The notes beneath the pieces are model-generated. The model made no database searches. It was not told the origin of the DNA and saw only the letters and a list, made by a program, of their open reading frames with translations. Made by a program: the position numbers and the translations under genes. Shown here piece by piece: positions 19,584 through 64,000 of a stretch of 64,000 bases of DNA. Source of the stretch: Pseudomonadota bacterium (GTDB lineage: Bacteria > Pseudomonadota > Gammaproteobacteria > Steroidobacterales > Steroidobacteraceae); contig JANNNQ010000447.1 in the NCBI GenBank assembly GCA_031398625.1, forward strand, positions 11,520-75,519. Direction: 5' to 3'. Every line of letters starts with the position of its first letter. The first letter of the stretch is position 1.

Positions 19584-19708
19584 TGGCCGTGGCCGAGCAG
19601 CCCGACACCGAGCAGACAAAAGCCGACGTCACCAAGTGGGTAACGAACCTCGACCGAGCAATCGCGGATCTACGGGCGGAGATCGCCCGCCAGCAAGGAG
19701 CGAAATGA
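19583..19708 (+). CDS. 41-aa hypothetical protein
   Basis: TGATG overlap upstream and ATGA overlap downstream. Confidence 0.4.
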   Translation: MAVAEQPDTEQTKADVTKWVTNLDRAIADLRAEIARQQGAK

Positions 19709-20052
19709 TCACCACGCCGACGACTTTGACCGACCTCACCGAAGCCGTGGACCGTCTCACCGATGAAGCGAAAGACCTGCGTTCGCAGTTGCGGTCACGG
19801 ACCACTGCCCTGTGGGTCGCGATCACCGTCGGTGGAGTGATCCTCCTTGTCGTCATCGCCGCTGCGTACTCGGTGAGCCTGAACAACCGGGACGCCATTG
19901 CGGCCAACAACCTCAGGTGGTGCCCGGTTGTCGAACCTCTCGCGCCAAGGGCTGGCGATCCGCCGCCTGCTGGCAGCCCGGAGCAGGTGGAGCGGGCCAT
20001 TCGGATTCGGAAGGCGTTCTCCAAGCTTGTCGACGATTTCGGGTGCCGATGA
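19705..20052 (+). CDS. membrane protein of lysis cassette
   Basis: 115 aa with one TM (LWVAITVGGVILLVVIAAAYSV). Confidence 0.5.
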   Translation: MITTPTTLTDLTEAVDRLTDEAKDLRSQLRSRTTALWVAITVGGVILLVVIAAAYSVSLNNRDAIAANNLRWCPVVEPLAPRAGDPPPAGSPEQVERAIRIRKAFSKLVDDFGCR

Positions 20053-20108
20053 GACACGCCACCGCCAACTTTTACCCATCAGAGTCACGCCACAAGGAGA
20101 TCAAGACC

Positions 20109-20684
20109 GTGAGTACCGTTACCGTGCAGGCGCAAGTCGTCAGCCAAGCCCGAGATGCTCTGTCCCGGGCCACTCGCCAGGCCATCCAGGCACTCATCCC
20201 CACCCTCCTCGTCATCGCAGGCGGCTCCACCGTCGGCATCAACATCGAAGCGGTCCTGATGCTGGCCGGGGTCGCCGCCCTCGTATCGGTCCTGAAATCC
20301 GCCGTCGGAGTTAAGCTTCCCGCCTCCGCGCCGACATGGGCACGGATCGGCGAACGCGCACTCACTGCAGCCGCAGGAACCGCACTGGGCTTGGTCACCA
20401 CTGACGGCCTCGTTGGGTCGGTGTCTATTCACTGGGAGACGGTGCTGACCGCTTCGGTGGGTGCGGCGCTGACCGCCGTGGCGATGTTCTGGACCAACCC
20501 GCCCGTGGTGGCGTCGGACGACGTCGACGACTTTGGGGATAGCTCCTTCGCCGAGTACCCGAAGATCGACGGCGACCCGTTCCCCCGGCAGCGCGACAGC
20601 GGCAACCTCGACGTCCTCCTGGTCGTCGGCATCGCCATCCTCATCGTCGTCCTGCTGCTCCTGTTCGGCGTCCGCCTCGGATGA
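20109..20684 (+). CDS. holin-like multi-TM protein (r1t-holin-like)
   Basis: GTG 20109 follows an AAGGAG. 191 aa with N-terminus ARDALSRATRQAIQALIPTLL and several TM segments. Confidence 0.5.
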   Translation: MSTVTVQAQVVSQARDALSRATRQAIQALIPTLLVIAGGSTVGINIEAVLMLAGVAALVSVLKSAVGVKLPASAPTWARIGERALTAAAGTALGLVTTDGLVGSVSIHWETVLTASVGAALTAVAMFWTNPPVVASDDVDDFGDSSFAEYPKIDGDPFPRQRDSGNLDVLLVVGIAILIVVLLLLFGVRLG

Positions 20685-22175: not shown

Positions 22176-23702
22176 CTACTCGCCGATGGCCTTGCCGAGG
22201 AAGAGGGCCGACATCTCCTCGGCAGCTTTCCGCAGCTCTGCGTTCGGGGACCTGGCGTACAGGTTCATCGTCGTCTGAATGTCGGCGTGCCGCAGGAGGG
22301 TCATCGCGATCCGGGGGTGGATCTCGAGGGCAACCATCATCGTCGCCGCCCAATGCCTCGCGGCGTGGGGGCGGATGTGCTCGGCCCCTGCCTCTTCGAG
22401 GATGCTCACCCATTCGTCCCAGTCGTCGCGGGGGTCGATCGGCCGGCCGTTGCGCTGAGAGAACAAAAGCAGCACCTGCTCCCCGTTGATCTCCCAGCCC
22501 TTCCACCGGGGCCCTTCCTCGATCCGCTCCCGCTTCTGCGCTGTCAACCGCGCCTTGAGAAGGTCAGCGATCTGCTTCGGCATCGGCAAAGGCGCGTCGG
22601 AGGCTTTCGTCTTCACGGGCAGCAGGACCAGCCCTCCACCGTCAGAGTTCGGACACCTCGCGGCCTGAGCCTTCCCGCACGGCCACGCGGGACGCTCCAC
22701 CCCACCACCGACGACCACCTTGGGGCACTGCTTCGCCTGACGTTTCCCGCAGGGGAACAGCTTCGGCGGGCGCACCAACTCCGGTGGTTCCTTGTAGCGG
22801 TCCGCGTCCGAGCGGAGAGTCGCGGTTCCCGTTGGCTCCCCGCACCCGTGCGCGTACGTCAGTCGCGACCTCTCCGTTCCTACAGGGTCACCGCACCCAT
22901 GCCCGTCGGGGCGGTCCCGCTGGAGTTGCCAGCGAACGTTCAAGACTCCCGCGTCGAAGTCCAGCGCCGGGACGGTGAACCCCAGCGTCTCCCCCTGGCG
23001 CAGGCCGTACACGATCCGTAGCACCCACTTCGCGCCCAGCCGGCGCTTCTTGGCGACTTCGAGGACGCGGAGCATTTCGTCGAGTTCGACGTCGCGGTCT
23101 TCCTTGGGCTGCGCACCGGCGGGGAGCATGGTGAGGTCGGCGATGTTGCGGGGCATCCGGTTGCGTCGCCAGGCGATGTCGAACGCTACTTTCATCATCG
23201 CGTCGACTTGGTGGATAGAACTGGCGGCCATCCCCGCGTCGGCCATGGCTTGGTAACAGGCTTCGAGGTCTTCGGCTTTGACGGCGTCCATTCGTTTCTT
23301 GCCGATGCGGGGGTAGACGTGGTTTTTCGCGTACCCCTTGTAGGTGGCGAGAGTGGACCTGCGGTTGCCCTTGCGACCCTTGATGGGTTTCTTCGGGGCG
23401 AGGACGGTGAGGTAGTGCTCCATCCATTCCTGCACCGTGAGGGCTTTCGTGGTGGTGAGGGTTCCCGCGTCGCGGGCGTTGATCAGGTCCCGGAGGTTCT
23501 TGTTCGCTTCGGCTTTCGTGGGTGCGGACTTGGAGTATTTCTTCTCCTGTTTGCCACCGACGATGTCGAGGGTGATGTAGCCGCGCCAGGAGACGGTCTC
23601 GACGACGGTCCCGTCTACCCGGGTTTTCTTCCGGACGGTCCGGTAGACGCTGCCTTCACCGTTGGATTTGGTTCTCTTGCGGGGCTTCTGGTCCCCGCCC
23701 AT
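22176..23702 (-). CDS. int: tyrosine integrase
   Basis: Has R (YGLRQGETLG), HAARHWAAT (HxxR) and LLRHADIQTTMNLYARS (H...Y). ATG 23702 abuts the ImmA stop. Adjacent to attP. Confidence 0.9.
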   Translation of the reverse strand: MGGDQKPRKRTKSNGEGSVYRTVRKKTRVDGTVVETVSWRGYITLDIVGGKQEKKYSKSAPTKAEANKNLRDLINARDAGTLTTTKALTVQEWMEHYLTVLAPKKPIKGRKGNRRSTLATYKGYAKNHVYPRIGKKRMDAVKAEDLEACYQAMADAGMAASSIHQVDAMMKVAFDIAWRRNRMPRNIADLTMLPAGAQPKEDRDVELDEMLRVLEVAKKRRLGAKWVLRIVYGLRQGETLGFTVPALDFDAGVLNVRWQLQRDRPDGHGCGDPVGTERSRLTYAHGCGEPTGTATLRSDADRYKEPPELVRPPKLFPCGKRQAKQCPKVVVGGGVERPAWPCGKAQAARCPNSDGGGLVLLPVKTKASDAPLPMPKQIADLLKARLTAQKRERIEEGPRWKGWEINGEQVLLLFSQRNGRPIDPRDDWDEWVSILEEAGAEHIRPHAARHWAATMMVALEIHPRIAMTLLRHADIQTTMNLYARSPNAELRKAAEEMSALFLGKAIGE

Positions 23703-24259
23703 CACAGGGCCGGGGAACCGACGAGGAATAGCCCGGAGTGGCGGACAATCGGGATCGCACCGATCCGAGCATCGAGGGTATTCGGGTCCACTTGGAGCAT
23801 CTCGGCTGCCTCCCGGCGGTCCCTCCCGAAACCCAGTGCCCACGCGAGCATGGTGTCGGTGATGAGCTTCACTGCCGCCCAACGGTCGGCTTCCACTTCC
23901 ATCGCTTCGTCCACGGCCGGATCTCCCGTTGGGGCGTGGCCGAGTTCAATGTGACGCAGCTCGTGCATGAGCGTGCACCGCTGTTCCACTGGTGTCCCAA
24001 TGTTGATTCGGATGCGGCGGGTCAGGAGGTCGCAGTCGCCTGCAATGTTGCCTAGGTCGCAGATTTCGTAAGTGGCGTCGAGGCGGTATAGCTCGGCTTG
24101 GACGATTGGATCCTGCACGTGCAGCCCCCTCTCAGCCAGGCCGCCCGGGGAATATCCCGGCCCTTTGCTACGACCTGTGCTCGAATGTTGACCGTACGTG
24201 CATCTTCTTGATCGATCTAGAACCGACCGGTAGATATGACCGAACAGATGATCAATCAC
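23702..24259 (-). CDS. immA: ImmA/IrrE-family metalloprotease
   Basis: HEXXH motif MHELRHIELGH. ATGA-coupled to the repressor gene upstream and abuts int downstream. Confidence 0.7.
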   Translation of the reverse strand: MIDHLFGHIYRSVLDRSRRCTYGQHSSTGRSKGPGYSPGGLAERGLHVQDPIVQAELYRLDATYEICDLGNIAGDCDLLTRRIRINIGTPVEQRCTLMHELRHIELGHAPTGDPAVDEAMEVEADRWAAVKLITDTMLAWALGFGRDRREAAEMLQVDPNTLDARIGAIPIVRHSGLFLVGSPAL

Positions 24260-39855: not shown

Positions 39856-40518
39856 ATGACCACGCGCGACCAGTTCGAAGCACGTCTCCTCGCCAGCCTC
39901 GATGACATCGTCGCCGGTTACGAGGACGCCTACCGCAGCGATAACCCCAATGGACTCTGGGAGTCGTGGGCGGAGTCGGAGAAGTACCGGCTGCGATCCT
40001 GCATCCAGCGCTGGGTGGGCTACGTCCCGCCCGTGTTCCGTTCGGCAGACCTCGCCAAGCTCGGGCCCGAGCAGCACGGGGATGCCCTCCGCGGCTACCT
40101 GACGGGGACCACCCGAAACCTGATGCTTGCCGGGCCGATCGGCACCGGGAAGTCGTTCGCCGCTTGGGCTGTCGCCAATGAGGCTGCGGCCCGAGGCTGG
40201 CGCCCCCGGGCGTGGTCGACGCCTCGCCTGCTTCTGGACATGCGCCCCGAGGGCGACCCGCAGGCGTTCACCAACGCCTGCCTCGCGGACCTGCTGATCC
40301 TCGACGACCTCGGGGCCGCCCGACCGACAGATTGGGCGACGGAGCAGATCTACTCGATCGCGGAGGAGCGCTGCAACCAGCAACTGCGCACAATTGTCAC
40401 CACCAACTCGACGTTCGATCAGCTCACCGCCATCTGGGGTGCGCCGACGATGGACCGTCTTCGGCACGCCGGCACGAGTCTCGTCTTCAAGGGCGATTCC
40501 CGCCGGGGCCCGGTATGA
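39856..40518 (+). CDS. DnaC/IstB-like helicase loader ATPase
   Basis: Walker A LMLAGPIGTGKSF, Walker B LLILDDLG. Confidence 0.7.
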   Translation: MTTRDQFEARLLASLDDIVAGYEDAYRSDNPNGLWESWAESEKYRLRSCIQRWVGYVPPVFRSADLAKLGPEQHGDALRGYLTGTTRNLMLAGPIGTGKSFAAWAVANEAAARGWRPRAWSTPRLLLDMRPEGDPQAFTNACLADLLILDDLGAARPTDWATEQIYSIAEERCNQQLRTIVTTNSTFDQLTAIWGAPTMDRLRHAGTSLVFKGDSRRGPV

Positions 40519-43154
40519 GCGCCGCACTGGAGGCCGTCCCGGACGATGGTGGACGTCACGCGCCGCCGAACGACGTCGAGGCCGAGCGGTGCGTACTGGG
40601 GTCGCTGATGCTGTCCGCATCCGTGCTCGACGACGTCGCCCCGCTGATCTCGGGCAGGGACTTCTACCGCCCAGCCCACGAGACCATTTGGGAGGCGATC
40701 ACCGGGCTTGCCAGCGAAGGGAACCCCTTCGACGCCGTAGCTGTGGCCGACCGACTCGACGCCAACGGTGACCTGTTGCGTATCGGTGGACCGGTGTACG
40801 TCCACACTCTCCTCAGCAGTGTCCCAACGGCTGCCAGTGGCGGCTACTACGCCCGGATCGTCGCCGACAAGGCCGTCCGCCGCCGGGTCATCGACGCGGG
40901 AACCCGGATTGCCAGACTCGGCTACACCAGCACGGGCGACGAGGCCCTGAACCTCATGGAGGCCGAGGTGCTGGCCGCGAACGATCGCACCTCCACCGAG
41001 GACTACCGGGCGATCGGAATGCTGCTTGACGAGACCTTCGACGAGATCGAAGCCGCCGGGAAGCGCGAGCAGGGCGTGACCGGGGTGCCCACCGGGTTCA
41101 TCGACCTCGACAAGCTCACCAGCGGCCTCCACGCGGGTCAGTTGATCCTCGTGGCGGGTAGGCCAGCGATGGGCAAGAGCTGCCTCGGAATGGACCTTTG
41201 CAGGTCGGCGTCCATCCACCATGGCCTGACGTCGGTGATGTTCAGTCTCGAGATGGGCCGATCCGACATCACGACGCGGCTCCTGTCGGCCGAGGCGAAG
41301 GTGCAGCTTCAGAACATCCGCAAGGGCAACGTCGACGAAATCGAGTGGGCGGCTCTGGCTCGCGCCCGGACCAGACTCGACGACGCCCCGTTCTTCATCG
41401 ACGACAGCCCGAACCTGACCCTCGCGGACATTCGCAGCAAGGTTCGCCGGCTGAAGCAGAAGAACGACCTGAGGCTGGTTGTCATCGACTACCTCCAGCT
41501 AATGACCAGCGGGAAGAAGGTCGAGTCGCGCCAGCAGGAGGTGAGCGAATTCTCCCGGGCGCTGAAGCTTTTGGCGAAGGAAGTGGAGGTGCCGATCGTT
41601 GCGCTGTCTCAGCTGAACCGAGGGCCGGAGCAGCGGCAAGATAAGACACCGCAAGCATCGGACCTGAGGGAATCGGGATGCCTGACGCGGGAGACGACCT
41701 TGCTCAGAGCGGATACGGGCGCCCCAGTTAGCTTCGGGGAGCTCATGGACAAGGGGTGGGAAGGCGTCTCCGTCTGGTCACTGGACGACGACCGGAAGAT
41801 TGTCGCTGCACCCATAACCAACGTCTTCCCCTCTGGGGTCAAGCAGACGTTCAAAATGCTGATGGCCTCTGGCCGAACAGTGACCGCCACCGACACCCAC
41901 AAATTCAGGACGCTCCACGGTTGGACGGCGCTGGGTGATCTCGTCCCCGGATCGCGGCTTGCCATTCCCCGCGCAATCCCGGCGCCGATGACCGGTGGAC
42001 TGGGGTGGTCAACCTACAGGCTCGGACTGTTGGCCCATCTCCTGGGAGATGGCTGCGTACTGACGAAGCAGCCAGTCCACTACACCAGCGAGGACGAGGA
42101 GAACATTCGGTTCGTCACCGAGGCAGCGGCCGAGTTCGGCATTACTCCCCGTCGCGTGGCCCAAGGGAACTGGTGGCATGTCTATCTCCCCGCTCCAGCC
42201 GCCGGTCGCAATCCGATCAGCAACTGGTTCCGAGAGATGGGCATTGGCAACCTCCGCAGCCACGAGAAGCACCTGCCAGCAGAGCTGTTCGGAATGACGA
42301 ACGCTGAAGTGTGCACCTTTCTTCGCCACCTGTGGGCGACTGACGGCAGAGTGGCCGAGCCCTCGAGCATGGCCAGTGGCATCGCAATCATTTCCTACGC
42401 CACAACCAGTCGACGCCTCGCGGACGACGTGGCGCTCCTCCTGGCCCGCCTCGGAATCGTGGCGAGGATCAAGGTGGTCCCGGAGGAGCGCGGGAGGGTT
42501 GGCTACCGAGTCACTATCGCTGACGCCGGTTCGATGCGGATCTTCTGCGAATCCATTGGAGTGCATGGCGCCAGAGGGGTCAGGGCCGACCGTCTTCTCT
42601 CCGAGCTGGTGGGCAAGAGGCTCAACCCGAACAAGGGCGCCATCCCACGTGAGATGTGGGACGAGATCAGGTCGCTCCGGGCCGAGGCCGGCATGACGGA
42701 GCGCGCGTTCCAGAGTCGGCTCGAAACCAGTTACTGCGGGACCACGCTCTACAAGACGGGGCTGTCGCGTGAGCGGATGGGGAGAGCGGCAGAAATCCTC
42801 AACTCGGATGACCTCCGGGGCTTCGCCAGCGATGACGTGTTCTGGGACGAGGTTGTTTCGATCATCCCTGCGGCTGTCGTCCCGGTCTTCGACGCGACAG
42901 TCAAGGGCACGCACAGCTTCATCGCGGACGGGATCGTCGCGCACAACAGCCTCGAGCAGGACGCCGATCTGATCATCTTGCTGCACCGTCCAGACGTGTA
43001 CGAGAAGGAGTCTCCTCGGGCGGGTGAGGCGGACCTCATCGTTGCCAAGCACCGCAACGGGCCGACGGAAACGCTCAAGATGGTCTTCCAAGGCCACTAC
43101 TCGCGTTTCGCCGACATGGCCGACGACTGGACCCCTCCGGAGCGTGCCTCGTGA
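40515..43154 (+). CDS. dnaB: replicative DNA helicase DnaB, interrupted by an intein
   Basis: PPNDVEAERCVLGSLML, GRPAMGKS, VVIDYLQL and ALSQLNRGPEQRQDK. The exteins join as DLRESG / SLEQDADLIILLHR. Confidence 0.9.
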   Translation: MSAALEAVPDDGGRHAPPNDVEAERCVLGSLMLSASVLDDVAPLISGRDFYRPAHETIWEAITGLASEGNPFDAVAVADRLDANGDLLRIGGPVYVHTLLSSVPTAASGGYYARIVADKAVRRRVIDAGTRIARLGYTSTGDEALNLMEAEVLAANDRTSTEDYRAIGMLLDETFDEIEAAGKREQGVTGVPTGFIDLDKLTSGLHAGQLILVAGRPAMGKSCLGMDLCRSASIHHGLTSVMFSLEMGRSDITTRLLSAEAKVQLQNIRKGNVDEIEWAALARARTRLDDAPFFIDDSPNLTLADIRSKVRRLKQKNDLRLVVIDYLQLMTSGKKVESRQQEVSEFSRALKLLAKEVEVPIVALSQLNRGPEQRQDKTPQASDLRESGCLTRETTLLRADTGAPVSFGELMDKGWEGVSVWSLDDDRKIVAAPITNVFPSGVKQTFKMLMASGRTVTATDTHKFRTLHGWTALGDLVPGSRLAIPRAIPAPMTGGLGWSTYRLGLLAHLLGDGCVLTKQPVHYTSEDEENIRFVTEAAAEFGITPRRVAQGNWWHVYLPAPAAGRNPISNWFREMGIGNLRSHEKHLPAELFGMTNAEVCTFLRHLWATDGRVAEPSSMASGIAIISYATTSRRLADDVALLLARLGIVARIKVVPEERGRVGYRVTIADAGSMRIFCESIGVHGARGVRADRLLSELVGKRLNPNKGAIPREMWDEIRSLRAEAGMTERAFQSRLETSYCGTTLYKTGLSRERMGRAAEILNSDDLRGFASDDVFWDEVVSIIPAAVVPVFDATVKGTHSFIADGIVAHNSLEQDADLIILLHRPDVYEKESPRAGEADLIVAKHRNGPTETLKMVFQGHYSRFADMADDWTPPERAS
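41679..42947 (+). mobile_element. DnaB intein (423 aa) with LAGLIDADG homing endonuclease
   Basis: Starts CLTRET, ends VAHN followed by Ser+1. LAGLIDADG blocks LLAHLLGDGCV and FLRHLWATDGRV. Inserted at the conserved RESG/S(I/L)EQDAD site. Confidence 0.85.
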
Positions 43155-46050: not shown

Positions 46051-46358
46051 CTGATCTGGTCAACCGAGTCGCCCTGACCGCCGCGAACGCCATTGCCTGG
46101 CCTTATCAGGACGACCCGAAGTCGAACATCGACGACGAGGACGACCTACAGCGGGTCCTCGAAGCCGCAGCCCCGCACATCATCGGCCCCGTCCTGGCAG
46201 CCCTTCATGAGCGAATGGTCAAGCTCAACACCGAACTGGTCGCAGGCGGCGACAACGACGCGTTCCCTGATTCATGGAGATTGCATCTGCGTTCCGTGGC
46301 TAAGGGTGTCCGCGATTGCATCGGCTGCGTCGACGAGACCATCCGAGGGCTGTCGTGA
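46047..46358 (+). CDS. hypothetical protein
   Basis: GTGA-coupled, 103 aa. Confidence 0.5.
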   Translation: MTDLVNRVALTAANAIAWPYQDDPKSNIDDEDDLQRVLEAAAPHIIGPVLAALHERMVKLNTELVAGGDNDAFPDSWRLHLRSVAKGVRDCIGCVDETIRGLS

Positions 46359-46588
46359 ACCCGCTCTGGTCCTGGGCACTGACCGCCGTCGGCGTCCTCG
46401 GCATCTACCTCGCGGGGAAGAAGAACAAGGCTGGGTGGGCCGTAGGTATCGGCGCCCAAGGGCTGTGGCTGGTCTACGCCATCACGACCCGACAGTGGGG
46501 CTTCGTCGTCTCCGTGGCCGTTTACGGCTCCGTGTATTGCCGGAACTGGCTCGCCTGGCGCCGCGACGAGCAGGAGGCGGCCAAGTGA
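46355..46588 (+). CDS. 3-TM membrane protein (PnuC-repeat-like, tentative)
   Basis: GTGA-coupled, 77 aa, Trp-rich TM segments. Confidence 0.45.
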   Translation: MNPLWSWALTAVGVLGIYLAGKKNKAGWAVGIGAQGLWLVYAITTRQWGFVVSVAVYGSVYCRNWLAWRRDEQEAAK

Positions 46589-46731
46589 TCCTCGCCCTCC
46601 TTCTCTGGCTGGCCTTTCTCGCCGGCGCCTGCCTCATCGGTGGACTACTCACCGACAGCACCAACCTCGGGGCGGGTCTCGCAGCCGGGGTCAAGGGACG
46701 GCCTTTCGTCCCCATCGACACACAGGAGTGA
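46585..46731 (+). CDS. 48-aa membrane peptide
   Basis: VILALLLWLAFLAGACLIGGLL... GTGA-coupled. Confidence 0.4.
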   Translation: MILALLLWLAFLAGACLIGGLLTDSTNLGAGLAAGVKGRPFVPIDTQE

Positions 46732-55369: not shown

Positions 55370-55678
55370 TCAGGCGTTCAGCTTGGCGGAGATCGCGGGC
55401 GTGTGCGTGGTCGTTGCGGCGATTCCCTGGCTGAGCGCCACGGATACGAGCGTCCCGAGGGAGGCGATGAGTTCCATCGTCTCGGTCAGCGACATGGAGG
55501 AGAGGGCGTGGTCGGCGTTGGTGTCGAGGAAGATCCTCGGTTCGCCTCCGGGGTCGGTGATCCAGGCGGCACCACGGGGTGTGTCGATGAGGTCAGAGGA
55601 GTGGTGCCAGCCGGGGGTGTCGTGGGTTGCGGTGCACCAGGTGGGGCAGGTCTTCGTACGGGTGGCAAGATTGGCCAC
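55370..55678 (-). CDS. hypothetical protein (DUF6907-like, tentative)
   Basis: TKTCPTWCTATHDTPGWHHS motif. GTG start. Confidence 0.5.
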   Translation of the reverse strand: MANLATRTKTCPTWCTATHDTPGWHHSSDLIDTPRGAAWITDPGGEPRIFLDTNADHALSSMSLTETMELIASLGTLVSVALSQGIAATTTHTPAISAKLNA

Positions 55679-57134: not shown

Positions 57135-57806
57135 CTAAAGGCCCAAGATCTGAAACTCGTCCGCACCCTCAGCCAGCTTCAGGAGCGGCACCCCAAACAC
57201 CTCGCACAGTTTGCCCAGATCCATCGCGAGCACCTTCCGCTGCCCGGTCTCCAGTTCGGCGACCGTGGTCTTCGACCATCCCAAGTGGGCGGCGAGTTCC
57301 CGTTGCGTCCATCCTCGACGCACCCGTTCCGCCGCAACGTTCCTCGGGAGAATGGCGTCCAGATTCCGGGCCGTTGCGCCCTTGGGCGGGCGAGGCGCGG
57401 GAATCGAGGCGGCGGACCTGCGCGAGACAGTGGCCGCCGACTCTTTGCCCGGCGTCTTGCCCAACGAGGCGGCGAATTGGACGGTGGTGTCGAAATCGTG
57501 CTCGAAGTACTCGTTGGTCCCGGGAGATCGGAACGCGGGCCCTCCTCCAGAGCAATGACGGATCAGTTCCCGCTCATTCTCAACGGCCTCAACGTGCGGA
57601 ATCGACACCCACACCTTGACGACAGGCCGACCGAAGACCCGACCGTTGCGGACATGTTCTCCAATGCGCCTTGCGGGGTGCTTGGCCAGGCCGACCTTGA
57701 TCCCGCCGGAATCGAAGGAGACGACGTAGATGTGCGCCTCGGGGCCAGCTGCAGGTATGCCCGCGTATTCGTACGGGAGGAGAATTGGCGTGGCAGACTT
57801 GCTCAT
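57135..57806 (-). CDS. T5orf172/GIY-YIG-like domain fused to C-terminal XRE HTH
   Basis: N-terminus HIYVVSFDSGGIKVGLAKHPARRIGEH...NEYFEHDF. C-terminus GWTQRELAAHLGWSKTTVAELETGQRKV. AGGAG upstream. Confidence 0.6.
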   Translation of the reverse strand: MSKSATPILLPYEYAGIPAAGPEAHIYVVSFDSGGIKVGLAKHPARRIGEHVRNGRVFGRPVVKVWVSIPHVEAVENERELIRHCSGGGPAFRSPGTNEYFEHDFDTTVQFAASLGKTPGKESAATVSRRSAASIPAPRPPKGATARNLDAILPRNVAAERVRRGWTQRELAAHLGWSKTTVAELETGQRKVLAMDLGKLCEVFGVPLLKLAEGADEFQILGL

Positions 57807-57923: not shown

Positions 57924-58160
57924 CTACAGGCCGAGGTCGTCGATCTCGTCCGCGCCTTCAGCGAGCTTCAGCAGGGACACGCCCAGCACCCGACATAGCA
58001 ATCCGAGGTCGTTGGCGAACACCGCACGCTGTCCGGACTCGAACTCGCTCAACGTAGACCGTGCCCAGCCGAGGCGCTCGGCAAGCTCACGCTGCGTCCA
58101 CCTCTTCCGCGCTCGTTCGGCCGCAACGTTTCTCGGGACGACATCACCGAGGGTAGGCAC
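57924..58160 (-). CDS. XRE HTH protein, paralogue of the C-terminus of 57135-57806 (possibly a truncated copy)
   Basis: RWTQRELAERLGWARSTLSEFESGQRAV...LLKLAEGADEIDDLGL is about 60% identical to its neighbour. GTG 58160 is the only usable start and has no clear SD. Confidence 0.45.
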   Translation of the reverse strand: MPTLGDVVPRNVAAERARKRWTQRELAERLGWARSTLSEFESGQRAVFANDLGLLCRVLGVSLLKLAEGADEIDDLGL

Positions 58161-58331
58161 AGAGCCGAACGGTATTGACAGTCTCCGACCATCACACGGC
58201 CGGGGTGAACAGCGTTCGGTGATGATGACGCCATGTCGGCGCTGATGACCTAATTCGGGAAAAACCTTCACCGAACAGAGTTCGCGGCGTACGTTGCAAG
58301 GAGTAGTCCACCCCTCTACAGGAGGTGAACG

Positions 58332-58652
58332 ATGGCAACGCTCCGCGGAGGCCCCGCAGAGGGCCTCCAAATCCCCGACGGTTCCAAAGACATCGAATGG
58401 GTGGCGACCACCCTGGACGACATAGGCAGGCCCATCCCCGACCAACCCGAGCCAGGCCACGCCCTCGTCCTCCCCGACGACGTCACCCCCGCCACCGAAG
58501 CCCTCCTGAACAAGCCCGGCCTTAAGTGGCAGTGCTACCGGAAGGGCGGGGCCATCCTCCCCGAGCTCGGCGAATACGACCCCCACGACGACCTCCCCAT
58601 CCCCACCGAAGGCACCGTCTACCGGTGGGTGTGTCGCAGGAGAGAACCATGA
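58332..58652 (+). CDS. hypothetical protein
   Basis: ATG follows AGGAGG. 106 aa. Confidence 0.55.
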   Translation: MATLRGGPAEGLQIPDGSKDIEWVATTLDDIGRPIPDQPEPGHALVLPDDVTPATEALLNKPGLKWQCYRKGGAILPELGEYDPHDDLPIPTEGTVYRWVCRRREP

Positions 58653-58765
58653 GCGCCACCACGGTCATCTACGCCGTGGACGCCGTCGTCGCTGTCTACG
58701 GCACTGGGTACCTCGCCGTCACCTGCTTCGTGACGAGACGCAAAGAGCGTGACTGCTGGCATTAG
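58649..58765 (+). CDS. 38-aa membrane peptide
   Basis: ATGA-coupled. MSATTVIYAVDAVVAVYGTGYLAVTCFV... Confidence 0.35.
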   Translation: MSATTVIYAVDAVVAVYGTGYLAVTCFVTRRKERDCWH

Positions 58766-58881
58766 AGCCCCTCACGGCGGCCCTAGGCCCTGACCGTCGT
58801 GACACCACACGGCCGCGCCGGTCCGGCACCCCCTCACCGGGCCGACGCGGTTGTAGACCCGGTAGGAGTGCCGGGGAAAGC

Positions 58882-58918
58882 AGAGAGCCCCACCTGAATG
58901 GGTCAGGTGGGGCTCTCT
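58882..58918. terminator. 16-bp perfect hairpin between convergent genes
   Basis: AGAGAGCCCCACCTGA-5 nt-TCAGGTGGGGCTCTCT. No clear U-tract. Confidence 0.5.
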
Positions 58919-58931
58919 CGCGCTTGGAGGG

Positions 58932-59162
58932 CTAGACGTCGATTCCGTCGGGCGGCGTCTCGGGGTCGCGGATCAGCTGACGGCTCTTCCGCTCCGCCCA
59001 CTCCTCGAACTCGTCTTTGTCCCAAACCCTCGTCCGGCGGACCCCGACGTAGTGAGTCTCTGGGAAGTCTGGCGTGAGTATCAACTGCTCGACGCGGGTA
59101 CGGGAAACGCCCAGCATCTTCACGACGTCGGCGAATCCCAGAAGCTCCACGAGGGTCAGCAT
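58932..59162 (-). CDS. HTH protein (excisionase/AlpA/MerR-like)
   Basis: MLTLVELLGFADVVKMLGVSRTRVEQL...RVWDKDEFEEW. The ORF part upstream of ATG 59162 has low GC3. Confidence 0.55.
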   Translation of the reverse strand: MLTLVELLGFADVVKMLGVSRTRVEQLILTPDFPETHYVGVRRTRVWDKDEFEEWAERKSRQLIRDPETPPDGIDV

Positions 59163-59188
59163 ACGGACCAAGGTCCTGTGTACTTGCT

Positions 59189-59206
59189 CCTGTGCATGTG
59201 CACAGG
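59189..59206. promoter_or_regulatory. perfect palindrome CCTGTGCA-TG-TGCACAGG
   Basis: It lies 27 nt upstream of ATG 59162, in the divergent region with 59293 (+). Confidence 0.4.
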
Positions 59207-59292
59207 GTAGCTTCATTGATGAGGCGCTGACCAGCGGCGCACGTCACAAGGAGTGCCGAAATGGCGATCCTCAAGCGGCTACGAGGCAGACA

Positions 59293-59511
59293 GTGAAGAA
59301 CCCAGGACGCACCACGGCCATCACCTGCTTCGCCGCACTCCTGGCCGTCACCCATCTCCTCAACTTCGGCATCTGGTGGAGCCTCGCCGTTTTCATTGCC
59401 GCCGACCTCGCGGTCCTCGCGGTCTGGATGTCGTCACCCCGATCCCAGGGCGTCCGCCCCGCGGAGGAAGTCGAAGCTGAGCCCGTCGAGGAACAGGCAG
59501 TGGCGTCATGA
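59293..59511 (+). CDS. 2-TM membrane protein (Spd-like position)
   Basis: AITCFAALLAVTHLLNFGIWWSLAVFIAADLAVLAVW. GTG start. Confidence 0.5.
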   Translation: MKNPGRTTAITCFAALLAVTHLLNFGIWWSLAVFIAADLAVLAVWMSSPRSQGVRPAEEVEAEPVEEQAVAS

Positions 59512-59693
59512 CGCGCCGCCTGCTGCTCCTCGGTTGGTGGAAGCGGGACTGGGCGCATTGGTCGGGCACGGCACGTCGGCGGATCAGCATCCCACCCGTC
59601 CGCCCATCCAACATCGCGGCGTCCCGCGAACCGCTTGACACCGACCTCCTCCTCTGGGAGCAGGAACTACGACACAAAGGAGTAGGCCGATGA
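59508..59693 (+). CDS. hypothetical basic protein
   Basis: ATGA-coupled, 61 aa. Confidence 0.45.
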   Translation: MTRRLLLLGWWKRDWAHWSGTARRRISIPPVRPSNIAASREPLDTDLLLWEQELRHKGVGR

Positions 59694-59911
59694 TGACCAT
59701 CGGAACTCTCTTCCTCGTCGCCTTCCTCTGGTTCGGCCACCGCCGAGGCTTCCTGGCCATCGGGTCCGTAGTCATCGGCCTACTCGTCGGCCTCGCTGCC
59801 TCCGGAGATGCCGCCGACTCCATCGGCAAGGGCGCCCGCGAATCCGCCGCCGCCATCGGCACAGGAATTCAAACCGCCGCCGTTTCCACCATGGACGCGA
59901 TAGTCAAATGA
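59690..59911 (+). CDS. 2-TM membrane protein (Spd-like position)
   Basis: ATGA-coupled, 73 aa. Confidence 0.5.
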   Translation: MMTIGTLFLVAFLWFGHRRGFLAIGSVVIGLLVGLAASGDAADSIGKGARESAAAIGTGIQTAAVSTMDAIVK

Positions 59912-61674
59912 CCGACATCATCGCGGAACCCACCGCGGAAACCGAAACACCGGAACCCGACCCGGGGCATGGTCTCACCGAGATCACCCCACCCCAGAGC
60001 GACAACGACTCACCGGCCGAGGAGTTCGCTCAGGCCCTCATGTCCGCCCCAGCAGCACTGCTGCTGGCCGGGAACAGTGCGGTGGCCGCCCTCTCTAGTG
60101 CGTTCCAGGTCGCGGGCGTCGCCGGTGTTGTCGGAACCACAGCTGCGGTCGGCGGGACTGCCGCAGTCGGCGCGGTAGTCCGGCGCGCCCACCGGGCCGA
60201 GACCGAACGGAAGGACAAGGCTGCAGGGAAGACCGTTGCCCCGAAACCGGTCAGCGCCCGCCAGGCGCGCAAGCAGGAACGGCAGGCCAAGCGCGCCGCT
60301 CGGGCCGCCAGCAACTCCCGTCGTGCTGCCACCCGCTCTGGCGCCGCGCCTGCTAGGTCGGGTGGCATCCCCTCCGGTGGGCGGCACGCGAAGACCGGCT
60401 CTCATCGTCCTGCCCGAACCCCCGTCCGCTCCGCGTTGGGCGTTGGCAAGGGATCCCCGGCAGGGCGGGGCTCAATTGGCAAGGGCGCAGGAAAGCCGGG
60501 CGCTGGGGTCGGTAGGCCATCAGGCAAGGCCCCGGTGTCCGCTAGCCGGACCTCGGGCATTCCTTCGGCAGGTCGCTCCGCGTCTTCCGGTTCAGCGGGC
60601 AAGCCAAGCAGGATCGCCTCCGCCGCGCGCCGTGGGATGGCTTCCGGGAAACGAACTGCGGGTGGCCCTGCCACTGGTGGTAGCCGGGTGGCCGGTGCTG
60701 CCCGGCGCGCGACCGGCGCTGCTGGACGCCGTGCATCTGGTGCCACCACGAACGCCGCACGCTCCGCCCGCAAGGCCGCAGCGGCAAGTCAGGCCCGACT
60801 CGGCCAGGCCGCCCACTCGGCCACCGGATCCCGCGCCGGCAGAGTCGCATCAGCTGCGGGCCGCCGGGTTGCTACGGGTGGCCGTGCCCTTGGTCGGGGA
60901 CTGCGGTCGGCCAGGAACACCGGCCGGGCAGCAGCGGCCGCAGCACGACAGGCCAGCGGTCCGCGAGGAGTCGCCAGGGCCGTCAGGCAAGCCGTCGCCC
61001 AGTCCCAAGCCGCCCGGAACGCCGCCACCGGCAGGCAGCAGACCGGCCTGCGGCGAGCCCGCCAGCGGGCCATCGCCGCATCCACCGGTGCTGGTGCCGC
61101 CGTCCTGACCGCCGGAGCGACCGGTGCGCGCAGGACCGGCCGGTGGGGATGGTGGCTCATCCGATCCGGCATAGCCCGAGCCACAGGCCAACCCATCCCG
61201 CTCCCACCCGGGCGCACCCCACCACCACAACCACAGACCGGTCACCCACCGGTCGCCGACACCGTCAGCCAGCCCGCCGGGCCAGCCGCACAACACCCAC
61301 CCACCATCAGCACAGGAGCACACACCATGTCACTCGGAAACGTCCTCGAAGAACTGTCCGGCCAGATGATCGCTGCCGCCGCCGGCTACGACCCCGACGG
61401 CATGGCCCAATGGGGACGCGACATGCGATCACTGGAGCAGGTGCTACTGAACATCGGCGGCGTTCTCCAGGCGATCCAGCGCGGCGCTGACGACTTGCCC
61501 GTCAACCAGGTCGTGAAGGAAACCATCGGCGCCGTCGGTGAACTCCAGCAGGCGTGCTCATCTGCGGCTGCGGACATCCACGCCACGTTCCAGGCCGTCC
61601 ACCGGGCCGAGTTGGAGCGGCTCGAGAACCCGCGCGCCAACGAGCACAAGTGGGACGCGGCGGCGAACCGGTGA
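59908..61674 (+). CDS. 588-aa Ala/Arg/Gly/Ser-rich basic low-complexity protein with globular C-terminus
   Basis: ATGA-coupled upstream and GTGA-coupled to the traB-like gene. About 400 aa of A/R/G/S low complexity, then a structured 115-aa C-terminus. Confidence 0.55.
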   Translation: MTDIIAEPTAETETPEPDPGHGLTEITPPQSDNDSPAEEFAQALMSAPAALLLAGNSAVAALSSAFQVAGVAGVVGTTAAVGGTAAVGAVVRRAHRAETERKDKAAGKTVAPKPVSARQARKQERQAKRAARAASNSRRAATRSGAAPARSGGIPSGGRHAKTGSHRPARTPVRSALGVGKGSPAGRGSIGKGAGKPGAGVGRPSGKAPVSASRTSGIPSAGRSASSGSAGKPSRIASAARRGMASGKRTAGGPATGGSRVAGAARRATGAAGRRASGATTNAARSARKAAAASQARLGQAAHSATGSRAGRVASAAGRRVATGGRALGRGLRSARNTGRAAAAAARQASGPRGVARAVRQAVAQSQAARNAATGRQQTGLRRARQRAIAASTGAGAAVLTAGATGARRTGRWGWWLIRSGIARATGQPIPLPPGRTPPPQPQTGHPPVADTVSQPAGPAAQHPPTISTGAHTMSLGNVLEELSGQMIAAAAGYDPDGMAQWGRDMRSLEQVLLNIGGVLQAIQRGADDLPVNQVVKETIGAVGELQQACSSAAADIHATFQAVHRAELERLENPRANEHKWDAAANR

Positions 61675-63758
61675 CTATCACCCCGACCGCCACGGCGAAA
61701 CCTGTCACTGCACCCGCACCGGTCAAACCGCCCCGGGACTGGTCCTGGCGCCACGGCCCGATCATCGGGCCCGTGAACGCCGGACTCGGCCTGTGCGCGG
61801 TGAGCATGGTCGGTGACCTCACCGGTGTGCTCGGCTGGTCGGGTGCGGTTGCCGGGGCAGCCGCAGCGGGCGGGGTGACATTCCGCGCCCACCGTCAGGA
61901 CATCAGCCCCCTCGGTCTCGGCTACCGGGCGGCGTGCTGGATGACAGCAGGGGGGTGGATGTCGTGGGCGCTGGCCACATCCGCATGGTCACCCGATGTC
62001 CTCGCCGGGCTCGCGGCCGGTGTCCTCGCCGCTGGCCTCGCCGCACCGGAGATGGCTGAGCACGAGACACGCGTCAACGACGGTCGGCGAAAGGAGGCCG
62101 ACGCGCTGGCGCAGGCTCAGGCGAGGGACGCCGCAGACAAGCGGCGGATAGCGATCGCCCTCGAATGGGAAGCGCGACTGGCCAAGGCCACCGGATTCAA
62201 AGGCTTCCAAGTGGTCGGAGTTCAGGACTGGCCGGACGCGGGCGGGTACACGATCGAGACCCGCCTGCCCGGCGGCGTCACCAAACGGATGCTGGCCGGC
62301 ATGTCCGAAGCCCTGGCCACCGATGCAGACCTGCCTCTCGGGTGCGGTGTCGAGGTCGGTGGCGGCAAGTCCCGCGGGTTCGTTCTACTGCGGGTCTCCA
62401 CCGTCGACACCACCGCCGAAGCCCAGCCATACCCGACCGACATCACCCCACTGACCCTCACGGGCCCGCTTCCGATCGGGATGCACCGTGCCAGCGTCCC
62501 CGCGACCGTGACGATCCTCGAGGATCCGCTGATGATCGTTGGCCGACGCGGGTCCGGCAAGACGGTGGCACTGCAGACGCTCAACGCCGGGATCGCCCGA
62601 TGTGTCGACGCACTCGTCTGGCACATCGACCTCAACGGCGCCGGGATGAGCTCACCGTGGCTCGACGACTTCCTCGCCGGCCGCATCGACCGCCCGCCCA
62701 TCGACTGGGTCGCCGCAACCCCCGACGAAGCGCTACTGATGGTCACCGTCGCCGTGAACATCGCCAAGGGCCGCAAGGTCGCCTACAAGGCGCTGATGCG
62801 GTCAGTCAACGACGACAAGATCCCCATCTCTGCCGCTGTCCCCGCGATCGTCATCGTTCTCGACGAAGGCGCCGAAGCGGTCGCCGCCAGCCGAGGCTAC
62901 GCCAGCCTCGCCGCCGCACTAGAAGAGCTCATCTCGATCGCCCGCGCGACCCGGCTACAGATCGTGCTGTCCGGCCTGCGCGCGACCAGCGAGACCATCC
63001 CCACCACGCTCAAGAGGCAGGTCGGGATCAAAATCCAGATGCGCCCCGAGGATGTCGAGGAGGTCGCCCAACTCTTCGGCTGGGCTGGTGGCATCACCGT
63101 CGAGGACGCCCCCTATCCCGGGTCCGGCCTGCTCAAGACGCCCGAGTCAAGGGGCATCGCCCCGTACCGCGGGTTCGACCTGCGGCCCGCCGACATCCGG
63201 CGCATCGCAGCTGAGACCGCGGCGTGGCGCCCGTACCTCGACAAGCCGTCCGCCGACATCGGCGGCACCGCGTACGCCAACCGCTGGGCCCGCTACCGGA
63301 CCTGGTACACCGACCAAGGAGGAGACGTCACCACCATGCCCACCACCCCTGCTCAGCCCGAGCCGACCCGCCCGGAACAGAGTGCCGGCCAGGGAATCGC
63401 CGGTCTCGGTGGCGCTAAGGAGAACCTCGACAACAACCTGGCCAAGCTTCGGGCGCTCCGCGAGCAGGCCGAGGGCCCGGTGTCGGCCAGCCCGGACTTC
63501 GATGCCGAGTTCGCCTCGATCATCGCCGGGGAGACCTGGGACGTGCCGGGCAGCACCGAAGAGGCGGATGGCCGGGAGCGGATGGTCGAGATCCTCGGGG
63601 TCGCCGGGCCCGATGGGCTGCACCGCGACACGCTCGCTGCGGCCCTGGCCAAAATCGGGGTGACCCCCTCGCGATCCACGCTCTACCGCTGGCTCGACGC
63701 CTCTGCCCAGAAGATCGAGGGCAAGCCCGGATGGTTCCGGATCCTCCCGTCTCACTGA
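61671..63758 (+). CDS. traB: FtsK/SpoIIIE-family DNA translocase, TraB-like
   Basis: N-terminal TM segments, Walker A VGRRGSGKTVAL, Walker B AIVIVLDEGAE, followed by a short-repeat array. Confidence 0.75.
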   Translation: MTITPTATAKPVTAPAPVKPPRDWSWRHGPIIGPVNAGLGLCAVSMVGDLTGVLGWSGAVAGAAAAGGVTFRAHRQDISPLGLGYRAACWMTAGGWMSWALATSAWSPDVLAGLAAGVLAAGLAAPEMAEHETRVNDGRRKEADALAQAQARDAADKRRIAIALEWEARLAKATGFKGFQVVGVQDWPDAGGYTIETRLPGGVTKRMLAGMSEALATDADLPLGCGVEVGGGKSRGFVLLRVSTVDTTAEAQPYPTDITPLTLTGPLPIGMHRASVPATVTILEDPLMIVGRRGSGKTVALQTLNAGIARCVDALVWHIDLNGAGMSSPWLDDFLAGRIDRPPIDWVAATPDEALLMVTVAVNIAKGRKVAYKALMRSVNDDKIPISAAVPAIVIVLDEGAEAVAASRGYASLAAALEELISIARATRLQIVLSGLRATSETIPTTLKRQVGIKIQMRPEDVEEVAQLFGWAGGITVEDAPYPGSGLLKTPESRGIAPYRGFDLRPADIRRIAAETAAWRPYLDKPSADIGGTAYANRWARYRTWYTDQGGDVTTMPTTPAQPEPTRPEQSAGQGIAGLGGAKENLDNNLAKLRALREQAEGPVSASPDFDAEFASIIAGETWDVPGSTEEADGRERMVEILGVAGPDGLHRDTLAAALAKIGVTPSRSTLYRWLDASAQKIEGKPGWFRILPSH

Positions 63759-63878
63759 GACAACACCCACCCGAACCCCGTTCTTTGTGCTCGTCTCACG
63801 TCTCAGCCCCCGTAAACAGCGGTGAGACGTGAGACGAGACGCCCCATGAGACGCCCGTGAGACACCGATGAGACGGAG
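63745..63878. repeat. array of (A/G)TGAGAC(G/A) repeats incl. a 16-bp perfect inverted repeat (clt/TRS-like)
   Basis: GAGAC occurs 7 times forward (63757, 63824, 63831, 63836, 63848, 63859, 63870) and 3 times reverse (63749, 63793, 63800). CTCGTCTCACGTCTCA (63790-63805) pairs with TGAGACGTGAGACGAG (63823-63838). The last three copies are 11 bp apart. Confidence 0.7.
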
Positions 63879-64000
63879 ATCGCTCGTGCACGCCGACCAG
63901 CCCGCCGACCACACCTGGCGCCGCTTCACCTGGGTCGTGGCCATCCTCGCCGGACTGGCCCTCGCCGTAGGTCTCGCCCTCTCCTACGCCTCCGTGTACC
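63868..64000 (+). CDS. membrane protein, N-terminal part (3' end outside window)
   Basis: MRRRSLVHADQPADHTWRRFTWVVAILAGLALAVGLALSYASVY..., open to the window end. Confidence 0.4.
   Translation, partial: MRRRSLVHADQPADHTWRRFTWVVAILAGLALAVGLALSYASVY

Follow-up and report, generated by a model that had tools for sequence, protein, structure and literature searches.

Could a temperate phage carry, besides the genes for its particles, the kind of DNA pump by which the plasmids of mycelial bacteria conjugate? The question is raised by a stretch of 64,000 nucleotides (positions 11,520 to 75,519 of contig JANNNQ010000447.1, assembly GCA_031398625.1), referred to here as the window and covering 64 kb of a 93,476-bp source contig, in which the genes of a temperate siphophage are followed by an operon ending in a gene for a 695-residue ATPase of the FtsK fold and by an array of short repeats. 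The reading favoured here, with a probability of roughly 0.58, is that these form a Tra-clt cassette, namely a Tra/TraB-type translocase of double-stranded DNA (dsDNA) with a candidate cis-acting transfer locus (clt), which is conserved in a lineage of temperate siphophages and works as a pump of the phage genome between compartments or hyphae. The parts of this reading differ in strength: it is very probable that the phage harbours a homologous Tra-clt cassette, and slightly better than an even chance that the cassette moves phage DNA between cells or compartments.

The Tra-type motor and its partner protein

The ATPase begins with N-terminal membrane helices and a charged helix, continues with the motor domain and a linker, and closes with a C-terminal domain of three helices and a hairpin that resembles a helix-turn-helix (HTH). 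Its membrane region, judged from the hydrophobicity profile together with the helices of the predicted model, comprises hydrophobic peaks at about residues 29-71 and 105-129 and predicted helices at 32-51, 56-75, 80-102 and 108-174. The motor bears the Walker A motif GRRGSGKT and the Walker B motif VLDE, with G294, G296, K297, D398 and E399 invariant in 34 homologues. The AlphaFold model (mean predicted local distance difference test score, pLDDT, of 83) shows four N-terminal helices, a globular motor and a small helical domain at the C-terminus, and in Foldseek searches its best matches are the motor domains of FtsK (E about 1e-15 over about 400 aligned columns, template modelling (TM) score of 0.60-0.67 on the target), followed by TcpA, an FtsK-like coupling protein of conjugation (E about 1e-15). 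A profile search of the PDB also returns FtsK (1.8e-12). The curated FtsK models stay below threshold, with Pfam PF01580 (FtsK_SpoIIIE) at 16.2 bits against a cut-off of 24 and no match to an NCBIfam FtsK model.

The protein matches phrog_31069 over its full length (E 6.7e-103, residues 28-669 on profile positions 31-688 of 742), and the profile of its family aligns with Tra of plasmid pIJ101 at a probability of 97.4% (hhalign, E 1.1e-11, about 23% identity over 306 columns), which places it in the actinomycete Tra/TraB/TraA family, in a subfamily apart from the classical pIJ101 type. Searches by tblastn and scans of genomes have revealed Tra proteins of 29-42% identity in actinomycete integrative and conjugative elements (AICEs), in plasmids and in phages, the AICE and plasmid relatives being 33-41% identical across most of Tra. 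At one locus (L004) the Tra gene precedes RepAM (DUF3631), a tyrosine integrase and a tRNA-Met gene, beyond which lies the host galK, and at two others (L016 and L018) a DUF3987 protein occurs with a tyrosine integrase adjoining a tRNA gene; all three are tRNA-integrated AICEs. The plasmid relatives comprise pSQ10 (with GntR; Tra 34% identical, E 2e-81), pFQ12 (34% over 94% of the query), pTH1 (with GntR, Nudix and ParA) and the plasmid-like contig L032. The phage relatives comprise the Thermobifida phage P1312, Streptomyces phages of the Hiyaa type, pZL12, the locus L031, in which lysis genes are present, and 48 IMG/VR contigs. One plasmid-like contig stands at 41% identity and one phage at 42%.

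In neighbour-joining trees of the motor region, the backbone of which is not resolved and in which the distance to the pIJ101 outgroup is saturated, the window joins its relatives from metagenomes (bootstrap 68%), P1312 joins loci from Nocardiopsis and Marinactinospora chromosomes (Nocardiopsaceae; 100%) and Hiyaa pairs with Galactica (100%), and the AICEs of Streptomyces (89%) and of Streptosporangiales (95%) each form a group. The phage copies fall in several separate lineages of the Tra family, and exchange of the cassette between phages and plasmids or AICEs has evidently taken place more than once, in one direction or the other. The original prediction had left it to profiles and phylogeny to choose among plasmid TraB, chromosomal FtsK and phage-specific clades. 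The protein belongs by homology to the plasmid and AICE Tra family and not to chromosomal FtsK, and its closest relatives of known context are phage-borne. Chromosomal FtsK and SpoIIIE share the motor fold and are likewise DNA pumps steered by short oriented motifs, but they are 16-19% identical and have another N-terminus and another C-terminal domain, and the present gene is encoded on a mobile element.

The gene directly upstream encodes a protein of 588 residues with an acidic N-terminus, hydrophobic helices at about residues 41-92, a basic low-complexity stretch of Ala, Arg, Gly and Ser (27% Ala, 17% Arg and 16% Gly within residues 86-400) and a helical C-terminal domain of about 110 residues; over the whole protein 81 Lys and Arg stand against 32 Asp and Glu. 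A hidden Markov model (HMM) of the C-terminal domain matches in 70 of the 80 Tra loci, and with three exceptions the match is in the open reading frame (ORF) directly upstream of Tra on the same strand. This pairing spans AICEs, plasmids, pZL12 and phages, with homologues in P1312_064, pSQ10 RS00015, pZL12.72c, Galactica gp98 and Hiyaa gp101, the partner in Hiyaa being the C-terminal domain alone. The domain has no Pfam family and accounts for 258 representative clusters among 1.84 billion proteins. On this distribution, the 588-residue protein is a conserved partner of this Tra subfamily, an obligate one that had gone unannotated. The long basic protein had been noticed in the original prediction, within a layout ascribed to TraB-driven conjugation and spread (Spd) functions; its existence and composition stand, and it is this partner and not an Spd protein. 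In the IMG/VR loci (L033-L071), many of the partner genes, about 3-4.5 kb upstream of the tra stop, appear tandem-repeated inside their coding sequence (7-mers occurring 7-28 times per 250 bp), and their low-complexity regions look like true peptide repeats.

The partner and the ATPase are the last of five plus-strand genes (59293-63758), all of whose junctions are 4-bp ATGA or GTGA overlaps and which therefore form one translationally coupled operon. Its small proteins with two membrane segments, coupled as foreseen, are both present, with an extra 61-residue ORF between them. The 73-residue one is 51% identical to the product of a 69-residue gene in the equivalent position of L001, a related metagenome contig, in which no homologue of the 61-residue ORF is seen; the coding status of that ORF is uncertain. 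Beyond the repeat array lies the start of the expected downstream membrane protein gene, which continues past the window end. Its product has a hydrophobicity peak of 2.39, and full-length relatives of 300-342 residues have an acidic linker rich in Asp and Thr and a C-terminal HTH; two of these proteins, Kin_342 and L001_300, are 45% identical, and the family gives weak matches to HTH_28 and HTH_38.

The cassette has Spd-like traits by analogy, in that small or multi-pass membrane proteins flank tra, the upstream ones coupled to it by overlap and one lying downstream. The earlier label 'Spd-like' can be kept for this analogy only, as blastp and hhalign reveal no similarity to SpdA, SpdB or KilB of pIJ101. 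The Tra-flanking genes of the related loci, with the L001 homologue representing the downstream gene of the window, find nothing among these three proteins by blastp, and the family of the downstream membrane protein has a probability of 0.1% against SpdB in hhalign. The GC content in 60001-64000 rises to 0.69-0.72, against about 0.65 elsewhere, partly through the Ala-, Gly- and Arg-rich partner gene; a foreign origin of the cassette may be a further cause.

The repeat array behind the motor gene

As predicted, an array of short repeats follows the ATPase gene, just where the clt of such elements lies. It reaches from the last few codons of tra to the ribosome-binding site of the gene that follows, and its nine copies of TGAGAC(G/A) are inverted at 63749, 63793 and 63800 and direct at 63756, 63823, 63830, 63847, 63858 and 63869, the final three direct copies being spaced by 11 bp. 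Seven of the 12 copies of TGAGACG in the window, and 9 of the 25 copies of TGAGAC, fall inside these 128 bp. The 12 copies of TGAGACG over 64 kb are about the number expected, so that the motif is not enriched window-wide, and a Poisson estimate gives about 0.03 motif copies per 128 bp; the array is far beyond chance. Outside it, TGAGAC occurs 16 times, 12 of these on the minus strand, against an expectation of about 38 +/- 7 for the whole window, a scarcity that could reflect the avoidance of ectopic sites. Two double copies of TGAGACG make up a perfect inverted repeat, and RNA folding of 63740-63890 gives -59.4 kcal/mol (z = -5.65); the inverted repeat could act as a hairpin, a cruciform or a terminator.

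The array recurs in relatives. TGAGAC arrays occupy the equivalent site in L001 (Tra 64% identical) and in a Kineosporia prophage (L026; 45% identical), with the sequence between the copies diverged, and L027 has the related motif TGAGA(A/C)TC. More widely, a lineage-specific array of repeats of 6-12 bp lies at or just past the Tra stop in 16 of the 17 distinct genome loci listed and in pSQ10, pFQ12, pTH1 and phage P1312. As motifs, Nonomuraea and Streptosporangium have CCCGGAC(A), other elements of Streptosporangium GGGGGTCACA and GGGACCCCCAC, Streptomyces GCTTGTTGTCGC, pSQ10 CGTTAC, pFQ12 TGACGCAAGG and P1312 GTGACAC. The position of clt would hence be predictable, immediately 3' of tra and with a motif particular to each lineage, which offers a simple clt prediction for AICEs. 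The strongest repeats found elsewhere in the 48 IMG/VR loci were also considered as clt candidates and rejected; they coincide with the low-complexity partner gene and look like coding repeats.

In the theta-type Streptomyces plasmid pWTY27, clt takes in 16 bp of traA and the 159 bp next to it, contains inverted repeats and four direct repeats of 7 bp, and is specifically bound by TraA (PMC3583192), and according to reviews of work on pSVH1 the clt regions contain repeats that the C-terminal domain of the cognate TraB recognises (PMC4447253). In position and make-up the TGAGAC array matches these published sites and, as a sequence feature, is likely a candidate clt. The likeness to pWTY27 extends to the motor, TraA being a membrane-anchored FtsK-like protein of 688 residues with two transmembrane segments, and to the span of the cis site, from the last codons of tra to about 130-160 bp downstream, with 7-bp direct and inverted repeats bound by TraA in vitro. 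The motif of pWTY27, compared by its published description, is TGACACC rather than TGAGAC, and its setting is a small plasmid that encodes Rep, Kor, Spd and Int, where the present carrier is a phage. TraB of pSVH1 and Tra of pIJ101 have a membrane anchor, an FtsK-like motor and a C-terminal DNA-recognition domain reading clt repeats (PMC4447253), a plan to which the membrane helices, the motor and the HTH-like domain of the ATPase would correspond. They are only remotely related; the cassette has no homologues of SpdA, SpdB or KilB, and the classical systems, to judge by pIJ101, which the partner HMM leaves unmatched, lack the long basic partner.

The cassettes of AICEs and plasmids from Streptosporangiales, Streptomyces, Frankia and Nocardiopsis (L004-L020, pSQ10, pFQ12 and pTH1) have the same partner-Tra pair and an array immediately 3' of tra. 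They differ in their array motifs, in the company of a RepAM or DUF3987 protein, a tRNA-adjacent integrase and GntR, Nudix or ParA genes, and in having no virion genes. FtsK-like genes have been described in actinophages (bioRxiv 10.1101/2024.02.16.580700), as the original prediction remarked and as the annotations of P1312 (gp063), Hiyaa, Galactica, Keanu and Spocter bear out. These translocases share phrog_31069 and 32-42% identity with the ATPase and have the partner or its C-terminal domain upstream; P1312 also has its array past the gene, whereas the Hiyaa-type phages have no adjacent array. The literature searched holds no description of a clt-type array beside a phage tra gene or of actinophage FtsK-like genes as a Tra-clt system, nor any of the conserved partner family or of such a cassette in integrase-type phages without plasmid functions.

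The cassette in its phage and what it may do there

That the cassette belongs to the phage is borne out by three independently assembled metagenome contigs of the Joint Genome Institute (JGI) (L001-L003, 46-62 kb; ATPase 64% identical). These have homologues of the window genes at 51.8-53.3 kb and 54.5-54.8 kb, of both XRE regulators, of the 106-residue gene and of the 73-residue membrane protein, and also carry counterparts of the long basic protein at 44% identity, of the ATPase and, at 76%, of the downstream membrane protein, with the gene for the terminase large subunit 3.2 kb downstream of the cassette. In the Kineosporia prophage, on a 247-kb contig, the order is GntR, HTH_17, partner, ATPase, membrane protein, YdjM-like protein and terminase, the last 6.4 kb downstream of the cassette. 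Independent contigs and a prophage thus agree in gene order, which makes a chimera very unlikely; the cassette is truly joined to the phage. The contiguity with phage genes claimed at the outset recurs in several independent assemblies, and the cassette, by gene content and order, is a stable constituent of the phage lineage. That the assembly is chimeric, or that a separate element adjoins the phage, with the cassette outside the phage genome, might be suspected from the strand switch and regulators at 54.4-58.3 kb, from a tRNA call by ARAGORN in the same interval and from the higher GC past 60 kb. Yet the genes on both sides of the supposed joint, at 51.8-53.3, 54.5-54.8, 57.1-58.6 and 59.7-64 kb, occur together on the three JGI contigs, which run on into terminase, the layout of the Kineosporia prophage is identical, and no integrase or Rep gene lies within 54-64 kb, which together leave this explanation almost no weight. 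The call itself, a tRNA-Thr(GGT) of 79 nt at 55486-55564 on the plus strand, was considered as the attachment site of a second element and is probably false: an Rfam scan at the gathering threshold finds no tRNA in the window, the call overlaps a minus-strand ORF (55370-55678) with a high GC content at third codon positions (GC3), and no integrase or repeat supports it.

In the mechanism proposed, the 695-residue protein would be anchored in the membrane by its N-terminal helices and assemble into a hexameric ring like that of FtsK. Its C-terminal HTH-like domain would recognise the phased TGAGAC repeats 3' of its own gene, where the ring would load, and the ring would pump the circular or replicating double-stranded phage genome across a hyphal wall or cross-wall into the neighbouring compartment or hypha. 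The 588-residue partner and the small membrane proteins would make up the envelope part of the machine, and the divergent XRE regulators probably repress the cassette, by analogy with kil-kor control. Should the cassette function as its plasmid counterparts do, the phage could spread both by particles and by conjugation-like pumping of its dsDNA genome. A more sweeping version is distinctly more doubtful, namely that a clade of integrase-bearing temperate siphophages, comprising the phage of the window, several soil-metagenome phages and the Kineosporia prophage, keeps a working TraB-type pump with partner and TGAGAC clt and that their genomes move from hypha to hypha or across cross-walls as naked dsDNA. 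Were this true, such phages would have a second route of infection, independent of capsid and receptor, that could establish lysogeny throughout a multinucleate mycelium; a prophage would gain a way to reach all of its compartments and spores, and the boundary between virus and conjugative element would be blurred in mycelial bacteria. The conserved TGAGAC array makes the phage-transfer hypothesis directly testable.

The idea of two routes has a published precedent in pZL12, a plasmid-phage with a tra locus (Zhong et al. 2010, as cited in PMC3583192 and PMC4487206), whose transfer, according to the summary in PMC3583192, is reported to need a major tra gene along with two neighbouring genes. 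The pZL12/ZL12 genome (GQ919031) is that of a tailed phage, and its only FtsK-like gene, pZL12.71c, encodes a product 29% identical to the ATPase (E 4e-35), with pZL12.72c, which has the same C-terminal domain, directly upstream and a homologous terminase 2.5 kb downstream. It differs in being, by the accounts cited, a 90-kb plasmid with RepA and ParAB, where the window contains a tyrosine integrase gene and neither rep nor par, and in having no obvious repeat array directly past the tra stop; there is no DNA similarity between the two. According to an earlier proposal by Thoma et al., phage DNA might be spread by plasmid spread functions present in actinophages (PMC4447253).

Several observations weigh against transfer as the role of the cassette. 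The closest relatives of the ATPase with known context are all phage-borne, and its function may have diverged from that of the plasmid Tra proteins. Many phage-borne relatives, including Hiyaa, Galactica and most IMG/VR contigs, have no adjacent array; in a k-mer screen of the IMG/VR loci, an array next to tra (a 7-mer occurring at least 4 times) was found in 7 of 48 and not in the other 41. A phage role that needs no clt is possible, and not every phage copy need use an adjacent one. The inverted repeat, taken alone, could be just a terminator. Neither homologues of Spd nor a GntR regulator of the TraR/KorA (kil-kor) type were found in the window, a divergent XRE pair standing in place of the latter. 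The C-terminal domain is modelled as helices at 629-648, 652-661 and 668-677 followed by short strands (pLDDT 78-92) and gives weak profile matches to the DNA-binding domains of ArgR and Fur (E 0.09-0.9), but a Foldseek search with the isolated domain does not demonstrate a winged helix: several of the entries ranked top by TM score are HTH or winged-HTH regulators, none of them significant (best E 1.9). The helix of this domain that would read DNA is alike in proteins with a common motif and unlike where the motifs differ, a pattern equally expected from common descent. Finally, the equation of pZL12.71c with the 'major tra gene' of pZL12 is our own inference.

What else could such a motor do in a phage? 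It might serve a phage-specific role other than transfer from cell to cell, with the array as its loading site, such as moving or segregating phage or host DNA in a sporulating or septating mycelium (for example, an episomal phage genome into prespores) or interfering with FtsK-dependent division of the host. Besides the phage-borne context of the closest relatives, the PHROGs class of the family ('moron/host takeover') speaks for this, as do the lytic-looking Hiyaa-type phages, which retain Tra and the partner domain without an adjacent array, and the equivalent job done on chromosomes by FtsK/SpoIIIE proteins (PMC4447253). However, the whole cassette of partner, anchor and array is the same as in AICEs and plasmids, where its sole known use is conjugation, and no observation separates this role, partly itself a variant of spreading, from spreading; it is considered unlikely, though far from negligible. 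Less probable still is that the cassette is cargo left by recombination with an AICE or plasmid and now does little, the array being only a transcription terminator or operator between two operons. The strong folding of the perfect 16-nt inverted repeat, the end of the array on the ribosome-binding site of the next gene and the raised GC, suggestive of foreign origin, would fit such a view. Inert cargo, however, would hardly keep its catalytic residues invariant across 34 homologues, or its gene order and motif in separate phages with protein identities falling from 100% to 45%, and a terminator needs neither direct copies past the hairpin nor 11-bp phasing nor genome-wide depletion of the motif; AICEs with other downstream genes, moreover, keep arrays at the same site.

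Two further explanations concern other machines. In one, an FtsK/HerA-like ATPase, be it like EccC of type VII secretion or of the HerA defence type, would drive defence against phages, superinfection exclusion or secretion; this is suggested by weaker structural matches to EccC/EssC and HerA defence complexes and by weak matches to NCBIfam EccCb and PADLOC mad8 in the P-loop region only. The best matches are nonetheless FtsK and TcpA over about 400 columns, the single ATPase domain contrasts with the multi-domain layout of EccC, the PADLOC matches are at the level of the P-loop with no partner gene matching any defence model, and the relatives in AICEs and plasmids lie beside Rep and Int genes, all of which leaves this explanation a slim chance. 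A slimmer one is left to the idea that the array is a pac or cos site of the phage, or a binding site of the small terminase subunit, with the ATPase aiding packaging. The proximity of the terminase large subunit, 2.5-3.2 kb downstream of Tra in L001 and pZL12, is in its favour, but equivalent arrays occur in AICEs and plasmids without terminase, the terminase lies 6.4 kb away in the Kineosporia prophage, L031 has none within 10 kb, and in L001 five genes separate the array from a terminase large-subunit gene that is itself normal.

The phage backbone and the genes before the operon

The remainder of the window, with a GC content of 65%, has the gene layout of a temperate siphophage (Table 1), and its source is a temperate phage of a high-GC actinobacterium. 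Megablast with 50 kb of its sequence reveals no relative in collections of phages and plasmids, and one of its tail proteins has no tblastn match among cultured phages. Phage genes lie on both sides of the integrase gene, and because of this the sequence is not integrated at its internal int, an earlier conclusion that is logically sound. Other elements of the original prediction have to be given up. The phage is not complete in the window, which opens within the major head protein gene and contains neither terminase nor portal. A phage-plasmid hybrid finds no support either, as no plasmid rep or par gene occurs in the window and no GntR, RepSA, RepAM, Prim-Pol, ParA or Nudix gene within 24-58.7 kb; of terminase and portal versus rep and par, a comparison proposed at the time, the window contains neither set, and outside the cassette it is ordinary siphophage. 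Nor need the host be Streptomyces, as the label 'Streptomyces-type' had it: the window has 65% GC, and the nearest named relative is the Kineosporia prophage.

Table 1. Positions of the phage backbone genes, the cassette and its surroundings in the window
Feature	Position	Strand	Evidence or remark
Major head protein gene	1-426		phrog_1650; window starts inside the gene
Two large proteins, head-tail genes and, past the tape-measure gene, tail proteins and a holin-like gene			downstream of the head gene
Tape-measure protein	11938-15219		
Tyrosine integrase	22176-23882	minus	
Early region	after the integrase to ~54 kb	plus	
XRE-family HTH regulator, 223 residues, N-terminal T5orf172/GIY-YIG-like region	57135-57806	minus	Pfam HTH_3 7.6e-12, HTH_31 2.1e-11
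Second XRE-family HTH regulator, ~80 residues	~57924-58170	minus	HTH_3 1.1e-10 in the C-terminal part of ORF 57924-58586
Acidic protein, 106 residues, no assigned function	58332-58652	plus	GC3 0.82; AGGAGG ribosome-binding site upstream
AlpA/Xis-like HTH_17 protein, 94 residues	58932-59216	minus	Pfam Phage_AlpA 22.5 bits (cut-off 21), HTH_17 6.7e-6
72-residue protein with two hydrophobic segments, first gene of the operon	59293-59511	plus	Kyte-Doolittle peaks 1.85 and 2.02; stop and next start overlap as ATGA
Basic ORF, 61 residues, bridging the two small membrane genes	59508-59693	plus	ATGA overlaps at both ends; GC3 0.74
73-residue protein with two hydrophobic segments	59690-59911	plus	hydrophobicity peak 2.2
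Tra partner protein, 588 residues	59908-61674	plus	composition; 44% identical to a 605-residue protein of L001
FtsK-fold dsDNA translocase, Tra/TraB type, 695 residues	61671-63758	plus	GTG start overlaps the upstream stop (GTGA)
clt-like array, nine TGAGAC(G/A) copies, 128 bp	63748-63875		motif count, repeat search, conservation in relatives
Perfect 16-nt inverted repeat with 17-nt spacer	63790-63838		repeat search
N-terminus of multi-pass membrane protein, cut by window end	63886-64000	plus	76% identical to a 300-residue protein of L001

Divergent from the operon lie two regulator genes that are tandem paralogues of the XRE family, their equivalents in L001 being two 80-residue versions. The longer one matches PHROG repressor and regulator families, is homologous to these two HTH genes and is a candidate controller of the divergent cassette; its extra N-terminal region gives weak matches to T5orf172/GIY-YIG-like families and to phrog_23624. 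A second repressor-like gene had been recognised earlier, and it is present, although not to its full proposed extent of 57924-58586: tblastn with the 80-residue HTH genes of L001 matches 57939-58160 only, so that the short form, divergent from the gene at 58332, is likely the real one. The first plus-strand gene past these regulators, whose product has no match in Pfam or PHROG, is 44% identical to a gene in the equivalent position of L001 (4622-4933). The AlpA/Xis-like protein matches the excisionase/regulator family phrog_66, and in the Kineosporia prophage a GntR gene lies upstream of the cassette.

The early region encodes a Sak4-like AAA_24 protein, C5 and Dam methylases, Mu Gam, RusA, DUF5131 and WDGH proteins and a DnaB helicase. 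The last, a DnaB-like replicative helicase at 40212-43154 on the plus strand, contains an intein that carries a LAGLIDADG homing endonuclease (DnaB_C 4.8e-94, LAGLIDADG_3 2.1e-23, Intein_splicing 2e-12). Replicative DNA helicases that match it lie near the Tra cassettes of P1312 (L023, 60 kb) and of pTH1 from Thermobifida halotolerans (L029, 55 kb), and pTH1 might itself be phage-related. In L001 the terminase gene is followed not by a portal gene but by twelve small minus-strand genes (16879-20552); one of these, at 18452-18715, shares 69% identity with an early gene on the plus strand of the window (46355-46597), which indicates mosaic rearrangement. In the structural arm, the region 949-5345 on the plus strand, which directly follows the gene of the major head protein and precedes those for head-tail proteins and tape measure, encodes a 540-residue protein without a family match and a 928-residue beta-helix protein with weak matches to tail-spike PHROGs, an unusual location for a protein of this kind. 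Within the same plus-strand arm, three successive high-GC3 ORFs run on the minus strand (8882-9508, 9551-10108 and 10105-10479) and could be morons or mis-called frames.

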